Part shown: positions 15,148 through 24,715 of the stretch, one piece after another
Layout of the letters: every line of letters starts with the position of its first letter
How positions within the stretch are numbered: the first letter of the stretch is position 1
Notes under the pieces: generated by a model
Told to the model about the DNA's origin: nothing
The model's input: the letters and a program-made list of their open reading frames with translations, nothing else
The model's database searches: none
Position numbers and translations under genes: made by a program
DNA from: Nanoarchaeota archaeon SCGC AAA011-G17
GTDB lineage: Archaea; Nanobdellota; Nanobdellia; SCGC-AAA011-G17
Assembly (NCBI GenBank): GCA_000402515.1
Contig: AQRL01000035.1
Span: 36,006 to 100,005, forward strand
Reading direction: 5' to 3'
DNA length: 64,000 nucleotides

Positions 15148-15675
15148 TTATTTATTTATTTTTTTATAGCCAACATAGATTAGAAGTATTAATGCAACCC
15201 CTGAAATTATGAATCTCAAGTAATCATCCATTGCTGACCAATATCTTATTACACCAACTAATATTGATAGTATCCCCCCAAATAAGAAGCCGTTAGCAAC
15301 TGCATCTACTGATATTACTGTAAGGCCTAAAATCAATGTTATAATGCCCAGGATAGTCAAAATTACAAAAACATTCCGGTCATATACCTCTTTTACTGCA
15401 GTGTATTCCTTATTGCATTTGTAGGTTACATCACAATAACCCATTATTACTGCACCGGTTGCTGTTGCTGTTTTTGGAACTTCTGGCCCTGAATAATGCC
15501 ATAAACCACCTGCATCTGTGCATTCTTTTTCTGTTTGAATATTTTTAGAATAAAGTGTTTCCGGACAGAATTGAGTATATTCTGGTGATTTGTAGAAGGT
15601 AAAAATCCCATAATTAAAAAAAACATTTAATAAAATTACAATCCCTATTGCCAAAGCTATTTGTTTGAATTTCAT
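15148..15675 (-). CDS. membrane protein with signal anchor and Cys-rich ectodomain
   Basis: N-terminal TM, 'CPETLYSKNIQTEKECTDAGG...CDVTYKCNKEY', C-terminal TM helices. Confidence 0.35.
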   Translation of the reverse strand: MKFKQIALAIGIVILLNVFFNYGIFTFYKSPEYTQFCPETLYSKNIQTEKECTDAGGLWHYSGPEVPKTATATGAVIMGYCDVTYKCNKEYTAVKEVYDRNVFVILTILGIITLILGLTVISVDAVANGFLFGGILSILVGVIRYWSAMDDYLRFIISGVALILLIYVGYKKINK

Positions 15676-15684
15676 TTTTTCCTC

Positions 15685-16272
15685 TTATTTTATTGATAAT
15701 AATCTTTTTTCTTTTTCTGTTAATCTTTTGGCTAACTTATGACCCTTATCTGTTAAATTTAAAATAATTTCCCTTCCTTTTCTACTCTTTTTTAATAGCC
15801 CCCATGTCGATAAAATATCTGTATAGTTTGAAACTAAAGATTTAATGTTTATATATTTTGTCCTTGGATAGAGTGTTTCTGCTAGCGCCCTCATTGGGAT
15901 CCATTCCCCACTTGATTCATTAAGAAGATTTACCATTCTCATCAAAAAAACCCCCTGTTGGTCAGTTATTAGGGTTTCAATATCTATTTCTTCATTTTTT
16001 AAAATCTCTTTTCTGGGTTCTTTGTAAGCTTCTTCTCTTTCATCTTCTTTTACTAAATAGCTTTCAAGCTTAGCTAATTTCATTTCTATATCTAATAATC
16101 TTCTATCAAAATTTTTAGAATTGTTTGTGTGGTGAGTATGGACCATATTTATCCGTTCATTTAATTTGCCCATATCACTTTTTATATTAATAAAGGAGTT
16201 CTGGACGGAATTATGAATATGATCTATTTTTTTATGTACGTCCTCTTTTTTTTTGAATAACCACCAAACCAT
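15685..16272 (-). CDS. Coiled-coil + C-terminal winged-helix DNA-binding protein (paralog of 16872..17486)
   Basis: Shares N-terminal 'V.NSFI..K' and coiled-coil with the downstream paralog. C-terminal wHTH 'IPMRALAETLYPRT...LTDKGHKLAKRL'. Confidence 0.45.
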   Translation of the reverse strand: MVWWLFKKKEDVHKKIDHIHNSVQNSFINIKSDMGKLNERINMVHTHHTNNSKNFDRRLLDIEMKLAKLESYLVKEDEREEAYKEPRKEILKNEEIDIETLITDQQGVFLMRMVNLLNESSGEWIPMRALAETLYPRTKYINIKSLVSNYTDILSTWGLLKKSRKGREIILNLTDKGHKLAKRLTEKEKRLLSIK

Positions 16273-16319
16273 TATATATATTAAAAAGTTTTTGTTTAAA
16301 TAGTTTTGGGTGTTCTCTT

Positions 16320-16660
16320 ATGAACTATATGAACGGTTCAGCAACGGTTCAGTGAATCCTGTGAACGTTCAGTGAACGTTCAGTGAACAGTAATTATAAT
16401 AAATTACATGTAAGTACTTACGTAAGTTACGTAAGATGTGTAAGTTACGGTTTATTTTTATATTTCACCGACGGTTTAAGTTGAAGTGTAAGTTACGTAA
16501 GTTACAGATCATGAAAGTGTAAGTGAACATTTGGTGACGTCATAGGAGTATTTTAGTGACGTCAGCGACGCTTTATTTTTAGTGAATATGAAGGAGAAAA
16601 ACGATAATTTATAGGCATCTGTGATGGTTAATCAGCGACGAGGAATAGATTAGTTCGCAC
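16320..16660. repeat. Iteron/palindrome-rich non-coding region (origin-like)
   Basis: Tandem 'AACGGTTCAG' x2. 'GTGAACGTTCA' x3 with a perfect palindrome TGAACGTTCA. 'GTAAGTTACG' family x5. Palindromic 'GTGACGTCA' x2. 'CAGCGACG' x2. Confidence 0.6.
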
Positions 16661-16764
16661 AATAGGGGTGTTTTGAGGAGATATATTAGGTTAATGTGAC
16701 TATATAGAGGAGAGAAAGAGTGAATAAATACGCAAAAAACAAGGGAATTAAGAGGGTTCTATTC

Positions 16765-16812
16765 ATGAATAGGATGTGCACAGACCAAATTAGATGTGTT
16801 TAGGATGTGCAT
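16765..16812. repeat. 46-bp direct repeat, copy 1 (TGAATAGGATGTGCACAGAC...GTGTTTAGGATGTGC)
   Basis: Near-identical to copy 2 at 17497..17541. The pair brackets the wHTH gene 16872..17486. Confidence 0.6.
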
Positions 16813-16871
16813 AAGTGAATAAGTGCATAGAATACAGGTTAAAATTACGTATAAAAATAGAGAAATGATAG

Positions 16872-17486
16872 CTAAAATAGTCTTTTCTGTCCTGGATCGG
16901 ACCCATAGTAAGCGGTGATTATTCTTTCCTTGTAGTTGAGGTTCCTAAAATCATCGAGTATCGAGAGAAAAACAGTCTTATTGTTGTGTTTTTTCTTAAT
17001 TATGGGAGCACCCTTTTGTATCAGAGAGCTTATGTAGGTTCTGATGCATCCTTCGGATAATCCCATCTTTTTTGAGACATCGATATAGGTTACATTGCTT
17101 TTCTGATCCTCCTCTAGCTGGTAGATTGTCAAAAAAGCCAGTAATTCCTGTTTTGTAAGGGTTTTAAGCAGGCTTTCAATGTTCTCAACTACTGTCTTTA
17201 ATCCTGATTTGTCATGTGAATAACTGTTGAATGAATGAATGAATGAATGAATAGACCCTATTTTTTCCTCTGGAACTATTGTGTTTTCTTCACTATTTGG
17301 CTTTGATTTTGTTATTTCCCCCCTTAAATCCTCTATTTTCTTTAGGAGGGTGTCTATTTGTTTGTTTTGCAGAGAAATAAGGTGTCTATTGTCTTCTATT
17401 TCTTTTTCAAGCTTGTCTGCGTGCTTTTTAGCCTCAATAAAGGAGTTTTTTACATTTTCTTTGAAAAAGGGGTCAATTTCTACCAT
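16872..17486 (-). CDS. Coiled-coil + winged-helix DNA-binding protein (iteron-binding/Rep-like candidate) containing a coding tetranucleotide SSR
   Basis: N-terminal coiled-coil. C-terminal wHTH 'TYIDVSKKMGLSEGCIRTYISSLIQKG'. Paralog of 15685..16272. Contains (TGAA)6. Confidence 0.45.
   Translation of the reverse strand: MVEIDPFFKENVKNSFIEAKKHADKLEKEIEDNRHLISLQNKQIDTLLKKIEDLRGEITKSKPNSEENTIVPEEKIGSIHSFIHSFNSYSHDKSGLKTVVENIESLLKTLTKQELLAFLTIYQLEEDQKSNVTYIDVSKKMGLSEGCIRTYISSLIQKGAPIIKKKHNNKTVFLSILDDFRNLNYKERIITAYYGSDPGQKRLF
17228..17251. repeat. (TGAA)6 tetranucleotide microsatellite inside a coding sequence
   Basis: Six perfect TGAA units, encoding 'IHSFIHSF' on the minus strand. Confidence 0.8.
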
Positions 17487-17496
17487 TTTTATCTGA

Positions 17497-17541
17497 ATAG
17501 GATGTGCACAGACAAATTTATATGTGTTTAGGATGTGCTTA
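17497..17541. repeat. 46-bp direct repeat, copy 2
   Basis: Matches 16765..16812 with a few mismatches. Confidence 0.6.
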
Positions 17542-17675
17542 ATATATGTTTAAGTGAATAATTGAATGAATAAATTGAATTCTTCAGAATTTGGGCATTA
17601 GAAGGCTATAAAACCATAAATTTTATAAATAAGCTAACTTTGTTTTTAAAATATAAACTAGTCGAGGTGAATAAT

Positions 17676-17843
17676 ATGACAGAATTATTGGTTGTAAGAA
17701 GCAAAATAAAAGAGTGCACAGATTTAAATGTTGCTGGAAACTTTGCAGATGCCTTAAGTGAAAAAGTAAGAGTTATGATTATGGATGCTGAGAAGAGAGC
17801 AAGAGGAAACGGAAGAAAAACATTAAAACCAGAAGATTTGTAA
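17676..17843 (+). CDS. small histone-fold-like protein (DUF1931-like)
   Basis: 'ELLVVRSKIKE...NVAGNFADALSEKVRVMIMDAEKRARGNGRKTLKPEDL' resembles small histone-fold DUF1931 proteins. This is a tentative call. Confidence 0.3.
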   Translation: MTELLVVRSKIKECTDLNVAGNFADALSEKVRVMIMDAEKRARGNGRKTLKPEDL

Positions 17844-17862
17844 ATTTTTTCTATTTCTTTTT

Positions 17863-18300
17863 TTATCCAATATACCCTTTAGCCTTATCTACATGGGGAT
17901 TTAGTGTTGGCATTGGCAAGTGAGGAGGCAAATTAACATCCTGAGAAAGATTCAATGCCTTAATATTACATTTTATCAAGGCTGTATTGAGCAATTGCGC
18001 CTTTAATGTTAATTCTATTTTTTTATCCTTTTTCCATCCATTTGCTATCTCCTTTATTTTAGCAGGAGTATCCAGATATAATAAGTGACCTTGTAATATT
18101 GTTGAACCGACGTCGGGATCATAGAACACACTATATTCAAAGGAAAGTTTTAGAACGTCTTGTTTTTTATCCTGACTTAAAGAAATTTCGTCTATAGATA
18201 TATCCTTAACTTCGATATTATTTCTAACTTTAATTCCCTTTTCTATTTTTCCTGTTCTCTCAACAGAAAACTTATCAAAATTAAAACCTACAACTGGCAT
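17863..18300 (-). CDS. hypothetical protein
   Basis: 145-aa ORF. Confidence 0.3.
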   Translation of the reverse strand: MPVVGFNFDKFSVERTGKIEKGIKVRNNIEVKDISIDEISLSQDKKQDVLKLSFEYSVFYDPDVGSTILQGHLLYLDTPAKIKEIANGWKKDKKIELTLKAQLLNTALIKCNIKALNLSQDVNLPPHLPMPTLNPHVDKAKGYIG

Positions 18301-18344
18301 GAATATTAGGTCTTGGGATAGTTTTTAAAGATTTTGGTTCTGAA

Positions 18345-20042
18345 TCACATCTCTTCTGGAGCCGTTATTGCCAAGAGATTTAACCCATTGCTTAGAACTT
18401 GTTTGGTTGCCTGCAGCAAGGATAAACGCGCCTGTTTTATCTTTTCCGGGGCTTGTAATACCTTGTGTTTATGATAGAATTCATTGGATAAATGGGATAG
18501 TTCGAGGAGATAATTTGCTATTAAATATGGTTTGTATTCTTCTGCTGCTTTCTTTATTACAGAAGGGAATAAGGACAGCTTTGTGATTAAATTAAACTCT
18601 TCTGACTGTTCTAATGCCTTGTAGTTTACATTCTTTGGTTTTTCTTTTCTTAAGATTGAAGAGATTCTTGCATAGGTATACTGAATATATGGGCCTGTAT
18701 CTCCCTCAAATTCCAAAGCTTTGTCTGGTGAAAAAATAATAACTTTTTCTGGTCCTTGTTTTAGAATATCAAACTTAATTGCCGAGGAGAAGATTGCCTG
18801 AACTGCTTTTTGTTTCTTCTCTGAAGACCAGGATTTATGGCGCTTTTTTACCTCTGATTCTAGTTTTGATAATAACTCTTTTTTAATCTCTGAATAGGTT
18901 ATTATCTTCCCCTTTCTAGAGGCCATTCTCCCTTCTGGCAGCATTACTAATTCATAAGACAAATGATAGCATTTTTTTGCCTGTTTAAACCCGTATAATT
19001 CCAAAATCTTGAATAGCTGCTGGAAATGTAATTTTTGTTCTGAACCTGTAATATAAATTAATTTATCCAGTTTATAGCTGTTTAAACGATCTATTGCCAT
19101 TGCAATATCTTTTGTTATGTATAAAGAGGTAGAATCACTCTTAAGGACCAGGGCCTTGTAAAGGTTATATCCCTCTAAATTAATTATAATTGCCCCTTCA
19201 CTATGCTCTGCTATCTTTTTCTTTAGCAATTCTGAAACAATTAATTTACCTTTGTTAATATAATCTGAATCAAAATAAGTTTTATCAAATTTCACGTCGA
19301 GATCTTTATAGATTTTATTAAAATAATCTAAGCTGTCTTTTACCCCCTGTTTCCATATCTTCAGATATTTTGGATCTTTTTCTTCTATCTTTTTATGAAT
19401 CTCCTGCTCTATGCCTGAATCCCCTAATTTTTCTGATGCTAAGGAATAAACATAACCAAGCCATTCTCCTCTATCTTTTGTTGGTTTTTCTTTTAGATGC
19501 TCTAGACCCCAGATACATTTGGATACATGGGTTCCTGTATCATTCAGATAGTTTACTGGAATCACCTTATATCCCTGAAATTTAAGAATTCTAACTAAAC
19601 TTTCTCCCAAAACAGTATTTCTTAAGTGACCTATGTGAAAGGCCTTGAAGGGATTAGGGCCTGAGAATTCAACCATTATTTTTTCTTTATTTAGTGATGA
19701 GCCATATTTGTCTTTTTTCTTTAGAATTTCCTGGATTGTTTGCTTTGTCAGCTCTGCCTTATTTATGTAAAAATTCAGATAAGGTCCTTGCGCCTGAATT
19801 GATTGTATAAACCCCTGCGGTTTTATTTTTAGCTCTAGATAATTTGCTATCTCATGTGGCGGCTTTTTGAATAGTTTTGATAGCTGAAAGCAAGGCAAGG
19901 CATAGTCTCCAAGTTCTGGATTTGGAGGAATTTCTAGTTTCAGGTCCTGCTTTGTCTCTTTTTTTAGAAGTTTTAGGATTTCTTTTTCAAAGTCCATTTG
20001 CAAAAAAAAGCTTAATTTGTATATAAATCTTGGGATTGTCAA
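18345..20042 (-). CDS. argS: Arginyl-tRNA synthetase (class I)
   Basis: 'FHIGHLRN' HIGH motif. C-terminal DALK-type anticodon-binding domain ('ANYLLELSHLSNEFY'). The start may be the internal Met 'MDFEKEIL'. Confidence 0.9.
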   Translation of the reverse strand: MTIPRFIYKLSFFLQMDFEKEILKLLKKETKQDLKLEIPPNPELGDYALPCFQLSKLFKKPPHEIANYLELKIKPQGFIQSIQAQGPYLNFYINKAELTKQTIQEILKKKDKYGSSLNKEKIMVEFSGPNPFKAFHIGHLRNTVLGESLVRILKFQGYKVIPVNYLNDTGTHVSKCIWGLEHLKEKPTKDRGEWLGYVYSLASEKLGDSGIEQEIHKKIEEKDPKYLKIWKQGVKDSLDYFNKIYKDLDVKFDKTYFDSDYINKGKLIVSELLKKKIAEHSEGAIIINLEGYNLYKALVLKSDSTSLYITKDIAMAIDRLNSYKLDKLIYITGSEQKLHFQQLFKILELYGFKQAKKCYHLSYELVMLPEGRMASRKGKIITYSEIKKELLSKLESEVKKRHKSWSSEKKQKAVQAIFSSAIKFDILKQGPEKVIIFSPDKALEFEGDTGPYIQYTYARISSILRKEKPKNVNYKALEQSEEFNLITKLSLFPSVIKKAAEEYKPYLIANYLLELSHLSNEFYHKHKVLQAPEKIKQARLSLLQATKQVLSNGLNLLAITAPEEM

Positions 20043-20084: not shown

Positions 20085-20363
20085 TTGCATTTTAAGACCT
20101 TGATGAGCCTAATCTCTGATAATAAAAAAGAGAAGATAAGAATGGATATATTAAGATTTCTTTATGATGAATATCCTAAAATGCTTTATACCTATGAGGT
20201 TGCGGATGCACTTACAAGGAATGATGAGTTTATTTTGGGTTTATTAATAGAACTGAGAGATAAAAAAGCAGTACATTGGATTGAAGAGACTAAAGGAGGA
20301 AAGATTAAGAGGAAATGGGGAATGAATGAACTGATATTCAAAACCTATAAGGAATTACTTTAA
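20085..20363 (+). CDS. small winged-helix protein
   Basis: 92-aa ORF, '[40 protein letters not shown]'. Confidence 0.35.
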
Positions 20364-21710
20364 TAACTTTTTAAGAACCAATTCGTGCCCTTTCCAGACC
20401 AGAGCTTCTTTTAGAACATCCTGGATTGTTGATGCGGGAATAATTTTTATCTTTTCCTGATTTTCTTTGGATAATTTAACATCTTGAATATTTGATTGGG
20501 GGATTATAACCCTTGATATACCTGCTTCAATTGCTGCTTCTATTTTTGGAGTAACGCCCCCTACTGCCAATACCTCCCCCCTTATTGATAATGAACCAGT
20601 CATTGCTGTGTCTTGTCTTATTGGAATTCCTTTGAATGCTGAAATGATTGCTGTTGCTACTGCTATTGAAGCTGAATCTCCTTCTACCCCCTCTGAGGCG
20701 GTTTGCAAAAACTGAATAAAAATATCATGTTTAACATCCTCGCCAAAATGTTTTAAAATAATTGCTGAAACATTCTTTACTGCTTCCTTTGCAATTATCC
20801 CAAGCTTTCCTGTTGCTACAAATTCTGATTTTTTTCCGCCGGGGGTTACTTCTGATTCTATTGGCAAGACAATTCCGGAGAATGCAAAACCATCCCCTAT
20901 AACTGCCAGACCATTAACTCTCCCTACTCTTTGTCCTTTTGTTATTATTATATCATATTTTTTCTTGTCTTCTATATACCTGTCTGCCATTTGCTGCTCT
21001 AGTGTTCTTGCGAGTTTTTTTGCTTCAATTATCTGTTTTCTATCTACTACATTTAATCCCTGTTCTTTTGCTAAATCCCCTGCTGCTCTTATTAATCCGC
21101 CAAGCTCTCTTAATCTTAATGTTAATTTCTCGGATGTATTTGCCCTTCTTTTTGCCTCATTTATTATTTCCTGAACAGCTTCATGAGTAAATGGGGGTAT
21201 TTTTTTGTCCTTTGCTATTTCCTGTGCTACAAACAAGGTCAATTTATTCCTGTTTTCCTGCGTATCATCTATCTCTGAATTCATATAAATTTCATAACCA
21301 TAACCCCTTATTCTTGATCTTAATGCAGGATGCATTCTTTTTATTGTCTCAACGTTTCCTGCTGCTACTAAAATAAAGTCTGTTGGAACTGGTTCTGACA
21401 TTGTTGTTGAGCCAGATGAACGTTCGGATTGCCCCTTAATCGGATATTTTTTTTCCTGCATTGCTGTTAAAAGTTCTTGTTGTGATTCTGTTGTTAGTGT
21501 TGCAACCTCATCCATAAATAAAACTCCCCCACTTGACTTGTGAATCATCCCTGGTATTAGTCTCTCATAGGCAGGAGTACCCAGACCCCCTGAATTCTTC
21601 ACTAGAATTCCATTTACTATTAGATTGCCTGACTTTGTAGTTAAATTATACAAATAACCCCTGTAAGACACTTTTTCTATTTTCTTTATTTTTTCTGTTT
21701 TTAGTTCCAT
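20355..21710 (-). CDS. lonB: LonB protease, C-terminal part: intein C-segment (39 aa) + AAA+ remainder + Ser-Lys protease domain
   Basis: Begins '[39 protein letters not shown]' (intein blocks F/G), then '[29 protein letters not shown]' (LonB sensor region). Catalytic 'GDSASIA' and a downstream Lys. Confidence 0.85.
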
Positions 21711-22115
21711 TTTTCCAATGATTGTTGTGTTAGGATGAAATTTAATATATTATTATTTTACAAAAACTTCTTCCCCTTTTTTTAGTTTTGAGGCTTCTGT
21801 ATACTGCTTTTTTCCTTTGTTATTAACTGCTATTTTGTGCTCTGGTGTAACTAACAACGTTTTCCCTGACTCTGTTGTTATTTTATATAGATAGGGTTTG
21901 TCTGATTTGTATTTATTAACTGAAAGTACTTCTACAGGCTGGATTTTCCCATTCTTTTCTGCTAATATGTATAATTCATCTTTTTTAAGATATACTGCTA
22001 TGTATCCCTTTTTCTTAATTAATTCTTTTTCGTGCTTTTTTAGTATTTTATTTACTTCTGTTGAAATATTTACTTTTTTTCCATTTTTTATGAGTTTATT
22101 GTTACCACTAAATGA
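21594..22115 (-). other. Mini-intein in LonB interrupted by tandem in-frame TAA TAA stops (N-segment 120 aa, C-segment 39 aa)
   Basis: Block A 'SFSGNNKLIKNGKKVNI' and block B 'LLVTPEHKIAV' lie in the upstream ORF. Blocks F/G '[21 protein letters not shown]|S' lie in the downstream ORF. Both are in the same frame, separated by TAATAA + 13 codons + ATG. Confidence 0.75.
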
Positions 22116-22730
22116 TTGTAACGGGTCATGAAGTACATCACCAAGCAATGCCCCTATTCTCGCCCCTGTTGCATCTAAGAAGGGTGCCTTTGACTGCTTA
22201 GAGTTATCAATTAGTAATTTTGGTATTTGTATTTTTGAAAAATTTATTCTTTTTCCAATATTAATAAATAAAATAAATCCTGCTAAGAATATCATTGAGC
22301 CTATCAGTGATGCTGCGGCCATTATATCTCCATATTGCTTTCTTACTATCCATGGGGTAATTAGAGAGATTATTAACAAAACAAAGAAAAGTATATTCTG
22401 GTTTTTTGTTGAAGCAACTGCCTGAATTTTTAGTTTATCTACTATTTCCTTTCCTTTTCCCTTTGCAACTGTTTTTATTAATGGGGTGTTATCATCAATG
22501 GGATTTGGATAAGACAAAATATCTTGTAATTTTTCTTCTGGCAATAATTCTGCAAGACCCTGAGCAAGCATACTCTTACCTGTTCCCGGATCTCCAATAA
22601 GAAGGATGTTTCTTCTTTGTTTGGCTGCTTTCTTGATTAAATTTACTGCTTCATTCTGACCTATAATCTGGTCTACTAATTTCTCCGGTATTTTAAGTTC
22701 CTTAGTTGTTTTAAATTTTAGATTGGTCAT
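21753..22730 (-). CDS. lonB: LonB protease, N-terminal part: AAA+ Walker A + membrane anchor + intein N-segment
   Basis: 'GDPGTGKS' Walker A. Two TM helices inserted in the ATPase domain (the archaeal LonB hallmark). 'PFLDATGARIGALLGDVLHDPLQ', then the intein N-segment. Confidence 0.85.
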   Translation of the reverse strand: MTNLKFKTTKELKIPEKLVDQIIGQNEAVNLIKKAAKQRRNILLIGDPGTGKSMLAQGLAELLPEEKLQDILSYPNPIDDNTPLIKTVAKGKGKEIVDKLKIQAVASTKNQNILFFVLLIISLITPWIVRKQYGDIMAAASLIGSMIFLAGFILFINIGKRINFSKIQIPKLLIDNSKQSKAPFLDATGARIGALLGDVLHDPLQSFSGNNKLIKNGKKVNISTEVNKILKKHEKELIKKKGYIAVYLKKDELYILAEKNGKIQPVEVLSVNKYKSDKPYLYKITTESGKTLLVTPEHKIAVNNKGKKQYTEASKLKKGEEVFVK

Positions 22731-23099: not shown

Positions 23100-23459
23100 C
23101 CCACACACCTATATTTCGTATGGAGTAATGGAGATTATTATTTCTTATGAATAACTTTTATTTATTATTTATTAATTAGTTTCTTTTTTAGTTAATAAGC
23201 AAATGGTTAATTTCGATGATTTTGGGGTATGATAAAATGATAGTAGAAGGCTTGTATTAACTTATCTCTATTTCCCATTATAAATTTTTCTATGTTATAT
23301 TATATTATATACTATTATATATATTTTGTATTATACTTTTTAGAGTGTTATAACTAAAAAGTTCTATGAGAAACATAGGTGTTCTTGATGAGTGATTATA
23401 ACTGAAAAGATGGCTAAGTTTCAGCAATACAATCTCCATAGGCAATGATGGTGTGGGTG
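23100..23459. promoter_or_regulatory. Candidate chromosomal replication origin (oriC): inverted ORB-like repeats flanking an AT-rich unwinding region, directly upstream of orc1/cdc6
   Basis: 'CCCACACACC...TATGGAGTAATGGAGATT' at 23100..23136. Its inverted partner 'AATCTCCATAGGCAATGATGGTGTGGGTG' at 23431..23459. About 295 bp of (TA)n-rich DNA in between. Direct repeats 'T(G)ATTATAACT(A/G)AAAAG' x2 at about 23351 and 23391. Confidence 0.5.
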
Positions 23460-23509: not shown

Positions 23510-24715
23510 ATGGTTAAGGTAGATTTAAACAATTTTTTTAAGGATTATCTCGATAAGAAACCCTTAATTCTAAATAAAAGATCATTACAAAATAATTATA
23601 CCCCAAGTGAGATTCCCCATAGGGATGAACAGATAAAGCAAATTGCTGGGATTCTTGCACCTAGTCTGAGAATGGAAAAACCATCTAATCTATTCATTTA
23701 CGGAAAAACGGGAACGGGCAAGACAGTTGTTACAAAATATGTCACTGAACAAATAATCAGCGCAAGCAAGGAAAAAAAGATACCACTAAAGGTATTTTAC
23801 TTAAATTGCAAGATGAAAAGAGTTGCTGATACTGAGTATAGAATAATTTCTCAATTGGCAAAGGCCTTTGGTGAAGAGGTTCCTGCCACTGGTTTGCCAA
23901 CAGATGAGGTTTATAGACTATTTTTAGATGCAATAGATAAGGAAAAACAGCTATTAATCTTAATTTTAGATGAAATTGATCAATTAGTCAAGAAAGCAGG
24001 CGATGAAATTCTTTATAATTTAACAAGATTAAGCTCTGAATTAAAAAATGTTGAGATTTGTATAATTGGAATAAGTAATGATTTATTATTCACAGAGAAT
24101 ATAGATCCTAGAGTAAAAAGTTCTTTAAGTGAAGAGGAATTGGTGTTTCCTCCATATAATGCCTTGCAATTACAGGATATTTTGAGAACAAGGGCAAATT
24201 TGGCATTTAGGCCAAATGTTTTGGCAGATGGTGTTATTGAAAAATGTGCGGCTTATGCTGCTAGAGAGCATGGGGATGCAAGAAGGGCCTTAGAATTGTT
24301 GAGAGTAGCTGGTGAATTAGCTGAAAGAAAGAACGAGGATAAAGTAGTTTTAGACCACTTGGATGAAGCAGAAGAGAAAATTGAGAAAGATAGAGTACTT
24401 GATGTTATTAATACACAGCCCAAACAATTCCAAATTACTTTACATTCTATTCTATCTTTGGATTTAGAGAATGAAAGTATTTTTACCGGAGATTTATATG
24501 ATGTTTATAAAACTAATTGCTTAACAATGGGATTAAAACCATTGACACAGAGAAGAGTTTCTGATATTATAGCTGAATTAGATATGTTAGGAATTATTCA
24601 TGCAAAGGTAATTTCCAAGGGAAGATATGGCAGAACCAGACAAATTTCCGTGGCAATCCCCCCCTCAACAATTCCAAATATAAAAAACAGTTTGAAAGAA
24701 AATTTAGGTTTATGA
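23510..24715 (+). CDS. cdc6: Orc1/Cdc6 replication initiator (AAA+ with C-terminal winged helix)
   Basis: 'YGKTGTGKT' Walker A. 'LILDEID' Walker B. The wHTH is at the C-terminus. 401 aa. Confidence 0.9.
   Translation: MVKVDLNNFFKDYLDKKPLILNKRSLQNNYTPSEIPHRDEQIKQIAGILAPSLRMEKPSNLFIYGKTGTGKTVVTKYVTEQIISASKEKKIPLKVFYLNCKMKRVADTEYRIISQLAKAFGEEVPATGLPTDEVYRLFLDAIDKEKQLLILILDEIDQLVKKAGDEILYNLTRLSSELKNVEICIIGISNDLLFTENIDPRVKSSLSEEELVFPPYNALQLQDILRTRANLAFRPNVLADGVIEKCAAYAAREHGDARRALELLRVAGELAERKNEDKVVLDHLDEAEEKIEKDRVLDVINTQPKQFQITLHSILSLDLENESIFTGDLYDVYKTNCLTMGLKPLTQRRVSDIIAELDMLGIIHAKVISKGRYGRTRQISVAIPPSTIPNIKNSLKENLGL

Follow-up and report, generated by a model that had tools for sequence, protein, structure and literature searches.

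Microsatellites in coding sequence with a period that is not a multiple of three usually meet one of two fates: they are purged, or they serve bacteria as on/off switches. The closest described examples are loci of Haemophilus influenzae and Neisseria such as lic1 (CAAT), lgtC (GACA) and mod (AGTC), in which a perfect tetranucleotide tract lies in the coding sequence and a frameshift of one unit truncates the product. A different use of short repeats is found in iteron plasmids, where a box for the host initiator lies beside the iterons, and where autoregulated winged-helix proteins go together with iteron or operator arrays. As to archaea, a 2025 review names them only as a future direction for phase-variation surveys, and according to a 2025 preprint, contingency loci are on record for archaea.

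The archaeal initiator Orc1/Cdc6 has its own recognition sequences, the origin recognition boxes (ORBs), for which the published euryarchaeal consensus is GTTCCAGTGGAAAC-AAA----GGGGG (PMC1868953). In Pyrococcus a cluster of ORBs lies inside the coding sequence of dp1 (PMC1904270), so that ORBs within genes have a precedent. Orc1 distorts the DNA 3' of its AAA+ contact (PMC3089459), and some Haloferax ORBs are followed by 'long GT-stretches'. The ingredients of the locus described here, an ORB-like motif, iteron-like repeats and a coding microsatellite, are therefore known ones. What appears to be new is their fusion within the codons of a protein linker, the reading of the element in two frames, and its co-variation with the promoter; no report of such an arrangement of box and array was found in searches of the literature on archaeal ORBs, on DPANN origins, or on archaeal microsatellites and phase variation.

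The gene occupies positions 16872..17486 on the minus strand of the window (the 64-kb stretch of DNA that was analysed), and encodes a 204-residue protein with an N-terminal helix, a linker and a C-terminal winged helix-turn-helix. The window was assigned to contig AQYW01000081.1 of assembly GCA_000380905.1. Read on the plus strand, its coding sequence holds six TGAA units at 17228–17251 with no mismatches (6.2 copies across 17228–17252 according to TRF). On the gene strand this is (TTCA)6 or, in an equivalent phasing, (ATTC)6 at 17229–17252, and the sequence TCT (ATTC)6 AAC is translated as S-IHSF-IHSF-N, residues 82–91, with the array itself coding for IHSFIHSF. It is the only tetranucleotide tract of more than three units in the window. 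From base composition, some 6e-6 tracts of at least six units are expected in 64 kb, and none appeared in 300 third-order Markov simulations, so that the perfect coding repeat pointed out in the preliminary description is real and far beyond chance. The same description held that gain or loss of a single unit would remove the C-terminal DNA-binding domain, and this too is correct: five units give a protein of 94 residues and seven a protein of 92, both of which stop before the winged-helix domain, while three or nine units preserve the reading frame. The tract is thus a perfect short-unit coding repeat with a period not divisible by three, as simple-sequence contingency loci are. An internal promoter or start downstream of the array was considered and rejected, there being no suitable in-frame start codon before residue 140.

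The protein has 105 homologs, most of them around 200 residues long, and every named one belongs to a Nanoarchaeota or Woesearchaeota genome. In an AlphaFold model, for which 61 sequences were used, a long helix (residues 6–60) is followed by a segment with pLDDT below 50 (residues 62–95) and a winged helix-turn-helix (residues 96–195). The array and the box that precedes it (discussed below) encode residues 71–90, within the segment of low pLDDT, and the IHSFIHSF peptide is predicted to sit in a disordered linker. The best Foldseek matches of the C-terminal domain are MarR, SmtB, CzrA and the C-domain of CodY; as modelled, its fold is that of a generic MarR/ArsR-type winged helix. The likeness to the MarR and ArsR/SmtB regulators lies in these C-terminal 100 residues, predicted to fold as a winged helix-turn-helix. 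Unlike them, the protein is predicted to dimerise through its 55-residue N-terminal helix, joined by the disordered linker, and not through the MarR dimer interface.

Sequence searches gave little more. No Pfam model reached its threshold for the 204-residue protein, the score for DnaD_N being 23.4 bits where 27 is required, and those for HTH_11 and HTH_36 also lying below their cutoffs; a PDB sequence-profile search returned no match below E = 0.03; and an Rfam search of positions 15500–18500 at a permissive threshold returned zero matches. No HUH, Rep_3/WH1-WH2 or primase-helicase domain, and no above-threshold similarity to DnaD, was detected in the protein. The label 'Rep-like', which the preliminary description had attached to the gene, is therefore unsupported, since all three Pfam matches are sub-threshold, and the fold matches are to MarR/ArsR regulators.

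A further 131 loci were gathered from genomes and metagenomes, so that about 130 relatives (Woesearchaeota and Nanoarchaeota), 96 of them non-redundant, could be compared. The sequence GGG TCT (ATTC)6 AAC is identical in the window and in four other lineages, one of them at 97% protein identity and three at 64–66%. The 97%-identical ortholog is from a groundwater relative. Metagenomes in which orthologs occur are ERZ1292627, ERZ1292643, SRR26786797, SRR22387859, SRR22387870 and SRR18077956. Across residues 71–91 in the window's clade, all 16 of the 16 codons with an invariant amino acid are invariant also in nucleotide sequence, compared with 44 of 104 in the rest of the gene. The sister clade carries (ATAC)5, translated as IHTYIHTL, in the place of the window's (ATTC)6. 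Every unit has changed alike, from ATTC to ATAC, which implies concerted evolution by slippage.

It is of interest that a tetranucleotide array is found just upstream of the winged-helix domain in almost every lineage, with a unit that differs from one lineage to another. The units seen include ATTC, ATAC, AATC, AAAC, ACTC, AAGC, ACAT, ACAG, ACGC, AGCG and TCAC, in 3–12 copies (L133, L054 and L024 are among the lineages with 8–12), and in the wider family the same position codes for unrelated repeats such as QSIN, KQTN, KQAS, HSLT and ASER. Among the 96 non-redundant loci, the 32 kb of linker DNA contain 55 runs of five or more units, as against one in 461 kb elsewhere, an enrichment of tetranucleotide runs over the flanks of approximately 800-fold. 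These genomes therefore do not form microsatellites as a general habit. Runs with a period of 3, 5 or 6 number zero in the linker DNA of the same loci, and it is at this single site, with a period of 4 alone, that microsatellites do form. Not all the arrays are intact: 17 of the 96 loci have no run of three units or more, and many lineages have interrupted arrays that appear to be decaying. Orthologs that encode the same peptide with non-repetitive DNA, which the preliminary description had named as an outcome that would tell against it, were not seen; the repeat is kept in the orthologs and throughout the family. The tract in the window is one instance of an ancient array that is conserved as DNA. 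Over evolutionary time, slippage has built and homogenised this array, and selection keeps it in frame.

The array has a constant neighbour. Directly 5' of it lies a motif, (A)GTTCCAnnGGAAATGAAGGGGTC with the consensus GTTCCAnnGGAAATGAAGGGGT, which is conserved at the nucleotide level across the family, and in 69 of 88 loci the G-string of the motif is followed, at no more than 12 nt, by the start of a run of three or more units. In the window the motif is GTTCCAGAGGAAAAAATAGGGTCT at 17253..17276 on the minus strand, consisting of the dyad TTCCAnnGGAA and a short G-string, and read as VPEEKIGS in frame B. This copy is degenerate (GGAAAAAATAGGG), in that the dyad is kept but the G-string is a weak GGG and the spacer is A-rich. 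The conservation was examined by means of a codon test, anchored on the peptide pattern xSxGxxGx alone, which 76 of the 96 loci match. The serine is encoded by TCC in 75 of 76 (background 11%), the first glycine by GGA in 76 of 76 (28%), the second glycine by GGG in 76 of 76 (20%), and the asparagine by AAT in 71 of 71 (63%). An equally invariant glycine in the C-terminal domain, used as a control, has all four codons in use (19/14/14/12). In addition, eight non-redundant loci, the window among them, read the box in the other frame, as VPxExxGS and not as SSxGNEGV. The fixed codons and the two reading frames indicate that the constraint is on the DNA or RNA and not on the peptide.

The consensus of the box fits the euryarchaeal ORB consensus quoted above, and the family box agrees with the P. 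furiosus ORB1 oligonucleotide at 17 of 17 positions (PMC1904270). It also resembles the inverted ORBs at the oriC of this genome. What it has in common with archaeal ORBs and mini-ORBs is the dyad TTCCAnnGGAA, followed by AAT/C, 3 nt and a G-string, together with the neighbourhood of an origin. On the strength of these sequence matches, the box is probably an origin-recognition-box-like motif, a putative site for Orc1/Cdc6. Unlike known ORBs, the putative in-gene box is a single copy, lies 6–8 kb from oriC and has no partner across an unwinding element. It is further set apart by being embedded, in all lineages, in one and the same gene family, by its reading in two frames and by the tetranucleotide array directly 3' of it. 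The box occurs 114 times in 676 kb of family loci, always inside the gene family and never in the flanks. A second origin was tested for in the same 676 kb by looking for further ORBs in the 3 kb to the left and right of the gene, and there were none. Thus the arrangement typical of an origin, with several and often inverted copies around an AT-rich unwinding element beside orc1/cdc6, is not seen here, and the box is solitary. It was found also in 17 viral contigs, with longer G-strings and without any microsatellite. The idea that the box automatically causes a microsatellite is weakened by these 17 viral boxes and by those at oriC, none of which has one adjacent, so that the box alone is insufficient to account for the array. 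That the array itself serves as an AT-rich unwinding element is ruled out by the GC-rich units AGCG, ACGC and AAGC.

The probable chromosomal oriC lies at 23100..23459 in the window, where two inverted ORBs, CTCCATACGAAATATAGGTGTGTGGG (23100–23125, minus strand) and CTCCATAGGCAATGATGGTGTGGGTG (23434–23459, plus strand), flank an AT-rich repeat region. It adjoins cdc6/orc1 (23510–24715) and the PolD genes, and the GC skew flips sign there. The gene is about 6 kb from oriC in the window, and the in-gene boxes are 6–8 kb from it. The order PolD-cdc6-oriC...gene is kept in relatives at 58% and at 43% identity. In a third relative this neighbourhood is not kept and the gene is not near cdc6.

The DNA upstream of the gene provides further clues as to what the array may be. 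A putative promoter module, 8–56 nt upstream of the ATG (17494..17542, minus strand), contains two copies of GCACATCCTA around a TATA-like ATATAAAT at 17516–17523 on the same strand. The module is copy 1 of a 49-nt direct repeat. The second copy, 92% identical and accompanied by TTATTCAC and TATGCAC motifs, is at 16760..16834 on the minus strand, 40–110 nt 3' of the stop codon. Upstream of the module, at 17552..17582 on the minus strand, are the ATTCA repeats, GAATTCAATTTATTCATTCAATTATTCACTT, which agree with the in-gene array in unit and in strand; the piece here that matches the array is ATTCAATTTATTCATTCAATTATTCAC. On the other side of the array, the segment ACAGTTATTCACATGACA (17210..17227, minus strand) contains TTATTCACAT, which follows the array directly and resembles TTATTCAC and GCACAT, motifs that occur in the promoter of the gene. 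The sister lineages carry, at this post-array position, 16–21 nt identical to promoter sequence.

Similar relationships hold across the family. In a unit-by-unit table with a strong diagonal, 7-mers of the unit recur in the flanks of each gene's own locus and not in those of other lineages, mostly 20–70 nt upstream of the open reading frame and on the same strand as the array. For 73 loci, the 200 nt upstream were compared with each of several segments, and a locus was counted when the longest exact match was at least 12 nt. The promoter matched its own linker in 40 of the 73, as compared with nine for the linker of a random other locus, two for the N-terminal coding DNA, none for the C-terminal coding DNA and one for the reverse complement of its own linker; these counts ignore kinship, and unit types largely coincide with clades. 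Examples of the shared strings are AAGCAAGCAGTTAAGCACATAA in locus L034 and CTTATACACATCCTAAACACA in L060, and the promoter of L024 contains TTAAGCAAGCA three times. The self-similarity of the promoters (positions −130 to −10) peaks at a lag of 11, with a value of 0.380 against 0.310 in the control, and there are further peaks at lags 4, 8 and 19. Lags of 11, 4 and 8 are what would be expected from phased binding sites with a doubled 4-nt core. The promoter repeats are thus phased at approximately one helical turn, and the repeat co-varies with its cognate gene, which are the properties by which an operator array is recognised. Since the unit is the core of these 11-nt-phased promoter repeats, the array can be regarded as an expanded intragenic copy of them. 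Variants of the recognition helix also go with the type of unit. Each type, however, corresponds essentially to a single clade, and for this reason their co-variation is confounded with phylogeny and is not independent evidence.

The locus therefore resembles the iteron and operator arrays mentioned at the outset in having lineage-specific promoter repeats spaced at about one helical turn, a co-evolving winged-helix gene, and an initiator-like box beside the array. It differs from iteron systems in that it is chromosomal, that one of the arrays lies inside a coding sequence, where its period is 4 and not 11 nt, and that no Rep-type domains were detected.

The preliminary description had proposed that the tract is a phase-variation switch. 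The material available for comparison consists of consensus assemblies of uncultured organisms, in which minority alleles are hidden. There are 19 clusters of near-identical loci, around eight of which have diverged flanks, and in these, with tracts of 5–9 units, the consensus assemblies show no change in unit number and point substitutions alone. Between closer and more distant orthologs the number is again constant, with six units in the window and in all four orthologous lineages. The two halves of the protein are in different frames in only two of about 130 loci, L048 and L045. L048 was rejected as an OFF allele because its frameshift is a 1-nt deletion in the spacer of the box, and its (ATTC)5 is the same as in its nearest relative. 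The linker of L045 is open in both frames throughout, so that its frameshift cannot be localised. A third candidate, P0095/L159 (114 residues), had the appearance of a split gene, but the repeat in its contig is interrupted by an N10 scaffold gap. Slip-type OFF alleles produced by gain or loss of a unit thus number zero in the 96 non-redundant lineages, for which the assemblies report the majority allele.

In the sequences compared, the pattern is the opposite of that in classical contingency genes, and there is no sign of unit gain or loss acting as an on/off switch. With six units fixed down to 64–66% identity, zero changes in unit number and no slip-type OFF allele, the proposed switch is unsupported, although switching at low frequency could still occur, since assemblies show the majority allele. 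The family has in common with the Haemophilus and Neisseria loci the perfect coding tetranucleotide tract with its truncating one-unit frameshift, and some of its arrays even share their units (CAAT, GCAA, GACA). Unlike those loci, it has the tract in mid-gene, in a linker, and not near the 5' end; its close relatives agree in unit number, and essentially all alleles keep the frame; and it has deep nucleotide conservation, an abutting Orc1-box-like motif, co-variation with the promoter and a DPANN host.

The adjacency of the Orc1/Cdc6-box-like motif and the co-variation with the promoter together indicate a role at the level of DNA, and it is against this background that the possible explanations have to be weighed. 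A contingency locus, in which slipped-strand mispairing toggles the full-length regulator and the tract is kept for its useful mutability, seems to us quite improbable. It would account for the truncation before the winged-helix domain, for the tract being a unique outlier in its genome, and for the presence family-wide at one site of an array that is tetranucleotide and never trinucleotide, has up to 12 copies and shows the enrichment noted above. The whole-array replacement of ATTC by ATAC shows that slippage does act over time, and the reading of box and array in two frames across clades implies at least one past compensated frameshift. It is hard to reconcile with the constancy of exactly six units at 64–66% protein identity, with the diverged-flank clusters, which have point changes and no unit-number change, and with the frame-split loci, of which L048 has no slip, L045 is not localisable and P0095/L159 reflects a scaffold gap. 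Six units are also short for a high slippage rate, judging by the Haemophilus mod and lic tracts. Alternatively, the array might be a non-functional by-product, which arose once in a linker tolerant of any sequence and persists by slippage and concerted evolution, with its similarity to the promoter due to gene conversion or to a shared local mutational process. The segment encoded is predicted to be disordered; a tetranucleotide repeat yields one and the same peptide in all three frames, which makes the peptide robust; the units are linked to each other by one or two substitutions, as would fit descent from one ancestral array; and the interrupted, decaying arrays and the 17 loci without a run are readily understood. 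We nevertheless regard this explanation as unlikely. The 461 kb of flanking DNA contain essentially no microsatellites, even in intergenic regions where they would be neutral, and the tract has zero synonymous change in a gene that is otherwise saturated. In the promoter the copies recur with an 11-nt phase, which is what protein-binding sites would show, and the fixed place of the array right after a nucleotide-invariant motif is left without explanation.

Two further explanations assign the function elsewhere. One is a direct role in replication, whether as a site of secondary initiation or helicase loading, in titration of the initiator, or through distortion by Orc1 or fork stalling that generates the repeat. 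The motif is identical to ORBs, the synteny with PolD, cdc6 and oriC extends down to 43% identity, and the in-gene box has the same orientation as the oriC box on its side; the distortion of DNA 3' of the AAA+ contact of Orc1 (PMC3089459) and the GT-stretches after some Haloferax ORBs suggest how a repeat might arise at such a place. Even so, this role must be considered very improbable, given a single box that has no inverted partner in the 3 kb to its left or right, over 676 kb of loci, GC-rich arrays that do not amount to a generic AT-rich unwinding element, and boxes at oriC and in viruses that have no microsatellite adjacent; moreover, in the window, forks from oriC reach the dyad side before the array side. 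The other is that the peptide itself is functional, for example in metal or partner binding by a His/aromatic repeat, and the DNA repeat is merely codon choice. I83, H84 and H91 are indeed invariant in the 22 closest homologs. The wider family, though, has unrelated peptide repeats at this position, the flanking motif is read in two frames, synonymous codons are unused, and pLDDT is below 50. A function at the peptide level appears to be largely refuted already by these comparative data, and we give it almost no credence.

On the basis of these observations, we hypothesise that the linker-coding DNA near oriC contains a cis element, made up of the putative Orc1 box and the intragenic array, and we would put the chance of this at about even. 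In the orientation of the gene, the composite would run from the ORB-like motif through the tetranucleotide array to the operator-like motif, and would be ancient. Judging from the sequence, Orc1/Cdc6 would bind the in-gene box, and the promoter repeats and the array within the gene would share a sequence-specific binding factor, for which the winged-helix protein encoded here is the simplest candidate. How strongly this origin-proximal gene is expressed might thereby be tied to occupancy by the initiator, and the DNA signal would carry the IHSFIHSF peptide along as a passenger. Several observations do not sit easily with such a cis element. The in-gene box is solitary, lies 6–8 kb from oriC and flanks no unwinding element; in one lineage it is away from cdc6, and the window's own copy is degenerate. 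A period of 4 nt is too short for independent protein sites, and the true oriC and viral boxes do without a microsatellite. Gene conversion could produce the similarity of promoter and linker without any shared binding factor, and the co-variation of recognition helix and unit type is confounded with phylogeny, as noted above.

A more far-reaching form of the proposal is that the chromosomes of Woesearchaeal (DPANN) archaea carry, near oriC, an unrecognised control module linked to replication, in which an Orc1/Cdc6 box is fused to a co-evolving array in the disordered-linker codons of a coiled-coil/winged-helix gene. Occupancy by the initiator and the product of the gene would thus converge on a single stretch of 60 bp, and slippage in the array could tune the site or, in rare cells, turn the factor off. 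This is a speculative suggestion, and we think it rather doubtful.

It is clear in any case that an archaeal gene family has kept, for a very long time and without visible switching, a coding microsatellite of the kind that is normally purged or used as a switch, and has kept it beside an initiator-box-like motif. Should length variants exist in sequencing reads, the family would stand as an archaeal contingency locus that is well documented and backed by comparisons across deep divergence. No experimental origin data for DPANN archaea were found in the literature, and if the box and array are bound as proposed they would offer a testable handle on the control of replication in this group. They would also be an example of regulatory DNA hidden in the codons of a disordered linker, and would imply that 'conserved peptide motifs' such as IHSFIHSF can be the shadows of DNA signals. 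If the suggestion of a control module were true, this would be the first dual-use microsatellite of such a kind, serving both as protein and as DNA signal, and a candidate archaeal contingency element.

The interval 23100-23459 of the window is the probable chromosomal oriC. It contains inverted ORBs (CTCCATACGAAATATAGGTGTGTGGG on the minus strand and CTCCATAGGCAATGATGGTGTGGGTG on the plus strand), with AT-rich tandem repeats of around 300 bp lying between them, and the sign of the GC skew flips here. The cdc6 gene (23510-24715) adjoins this interval, as do the PolD DP1/DP2 genes, and a PRC-barrel gene at the same site is divergently transcribed.

PolD DP2, which lies beyond 24.7 kb, contains an intein with a LAGLIDADG domain. 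The gene calls divide LonB (about 20355-22730) into two, of 325 and 451 aa, and it appears to be interrupted by an intein: there are weak Intein_splicing matches, and an intein-like C-terminus is found at the start of the downstream ORF. All four of the long loci examined (L001, which is the window locus, L139, L140 and L141) have a tyrosine recombinase (XerA-like, around 272 aa) on the downstream side of the family gene, at a distance of 2.4-7.7 kb. In the window this region corresponds to L001 16210-19127, or about 8.3-11.3 kb, and a serine recombinase adjoins the tyrosine recombinase.

The family gene itself is flanked by a 49-nt direct repeat, 92% identical, with copies at 16766-16814 and 17494-17542. 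In each copy a TATA-like sequence is flanked by two occurrences of GCACATCCTA. The downstream copy (16766-16814) is not followed by any ORF of 40 aa or longer; its candidate roles are as a second promoter, a looping partner or a small RNA.

In L159, a metagenome scaffold, an N10 gap at about 1575-1584 falls exactly within the tetranucleotide region of the family member, which shows that these arrays break assemblies; such breaks could hide heterogeneity in array length. Long family variants (L025, L086 and L096; proteins P0019, P0025 and similar, of 281-354 aa) retain both the N-terminal helix and the C-terminal winged helix, together with the ORB-like box and the array, and carry an insertion of 100-200 additional residues of low-complexity linker following the array. 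Four viral contigs from IMG/VR (L142, L151, L153 and L156) have the ORB motif in common, in the conserved and apparently coding context GATGTTCCAGAGGAAATCAAGGGGT..ATAGAAGA, and may represent a further example of a gene-embedded Orc1 box.

A second coiled-coil/winged-helix gene is found at 15685-16272 on the minus strand. Upstream of it, 16330-16640 is densely occupied by palindrome arrays with an ACGT or CG core, comprising TGAACGTTCAG (5.5 copies), TTACGTAAG (3.6 copies) and GTGACGTCA (2 copies). At the equivalent position, the relatives L007, L060, L061, L024, L077 and L118 have other, lineage-specific palindrome arrays. This suggests another co-evolving protein/site pair.
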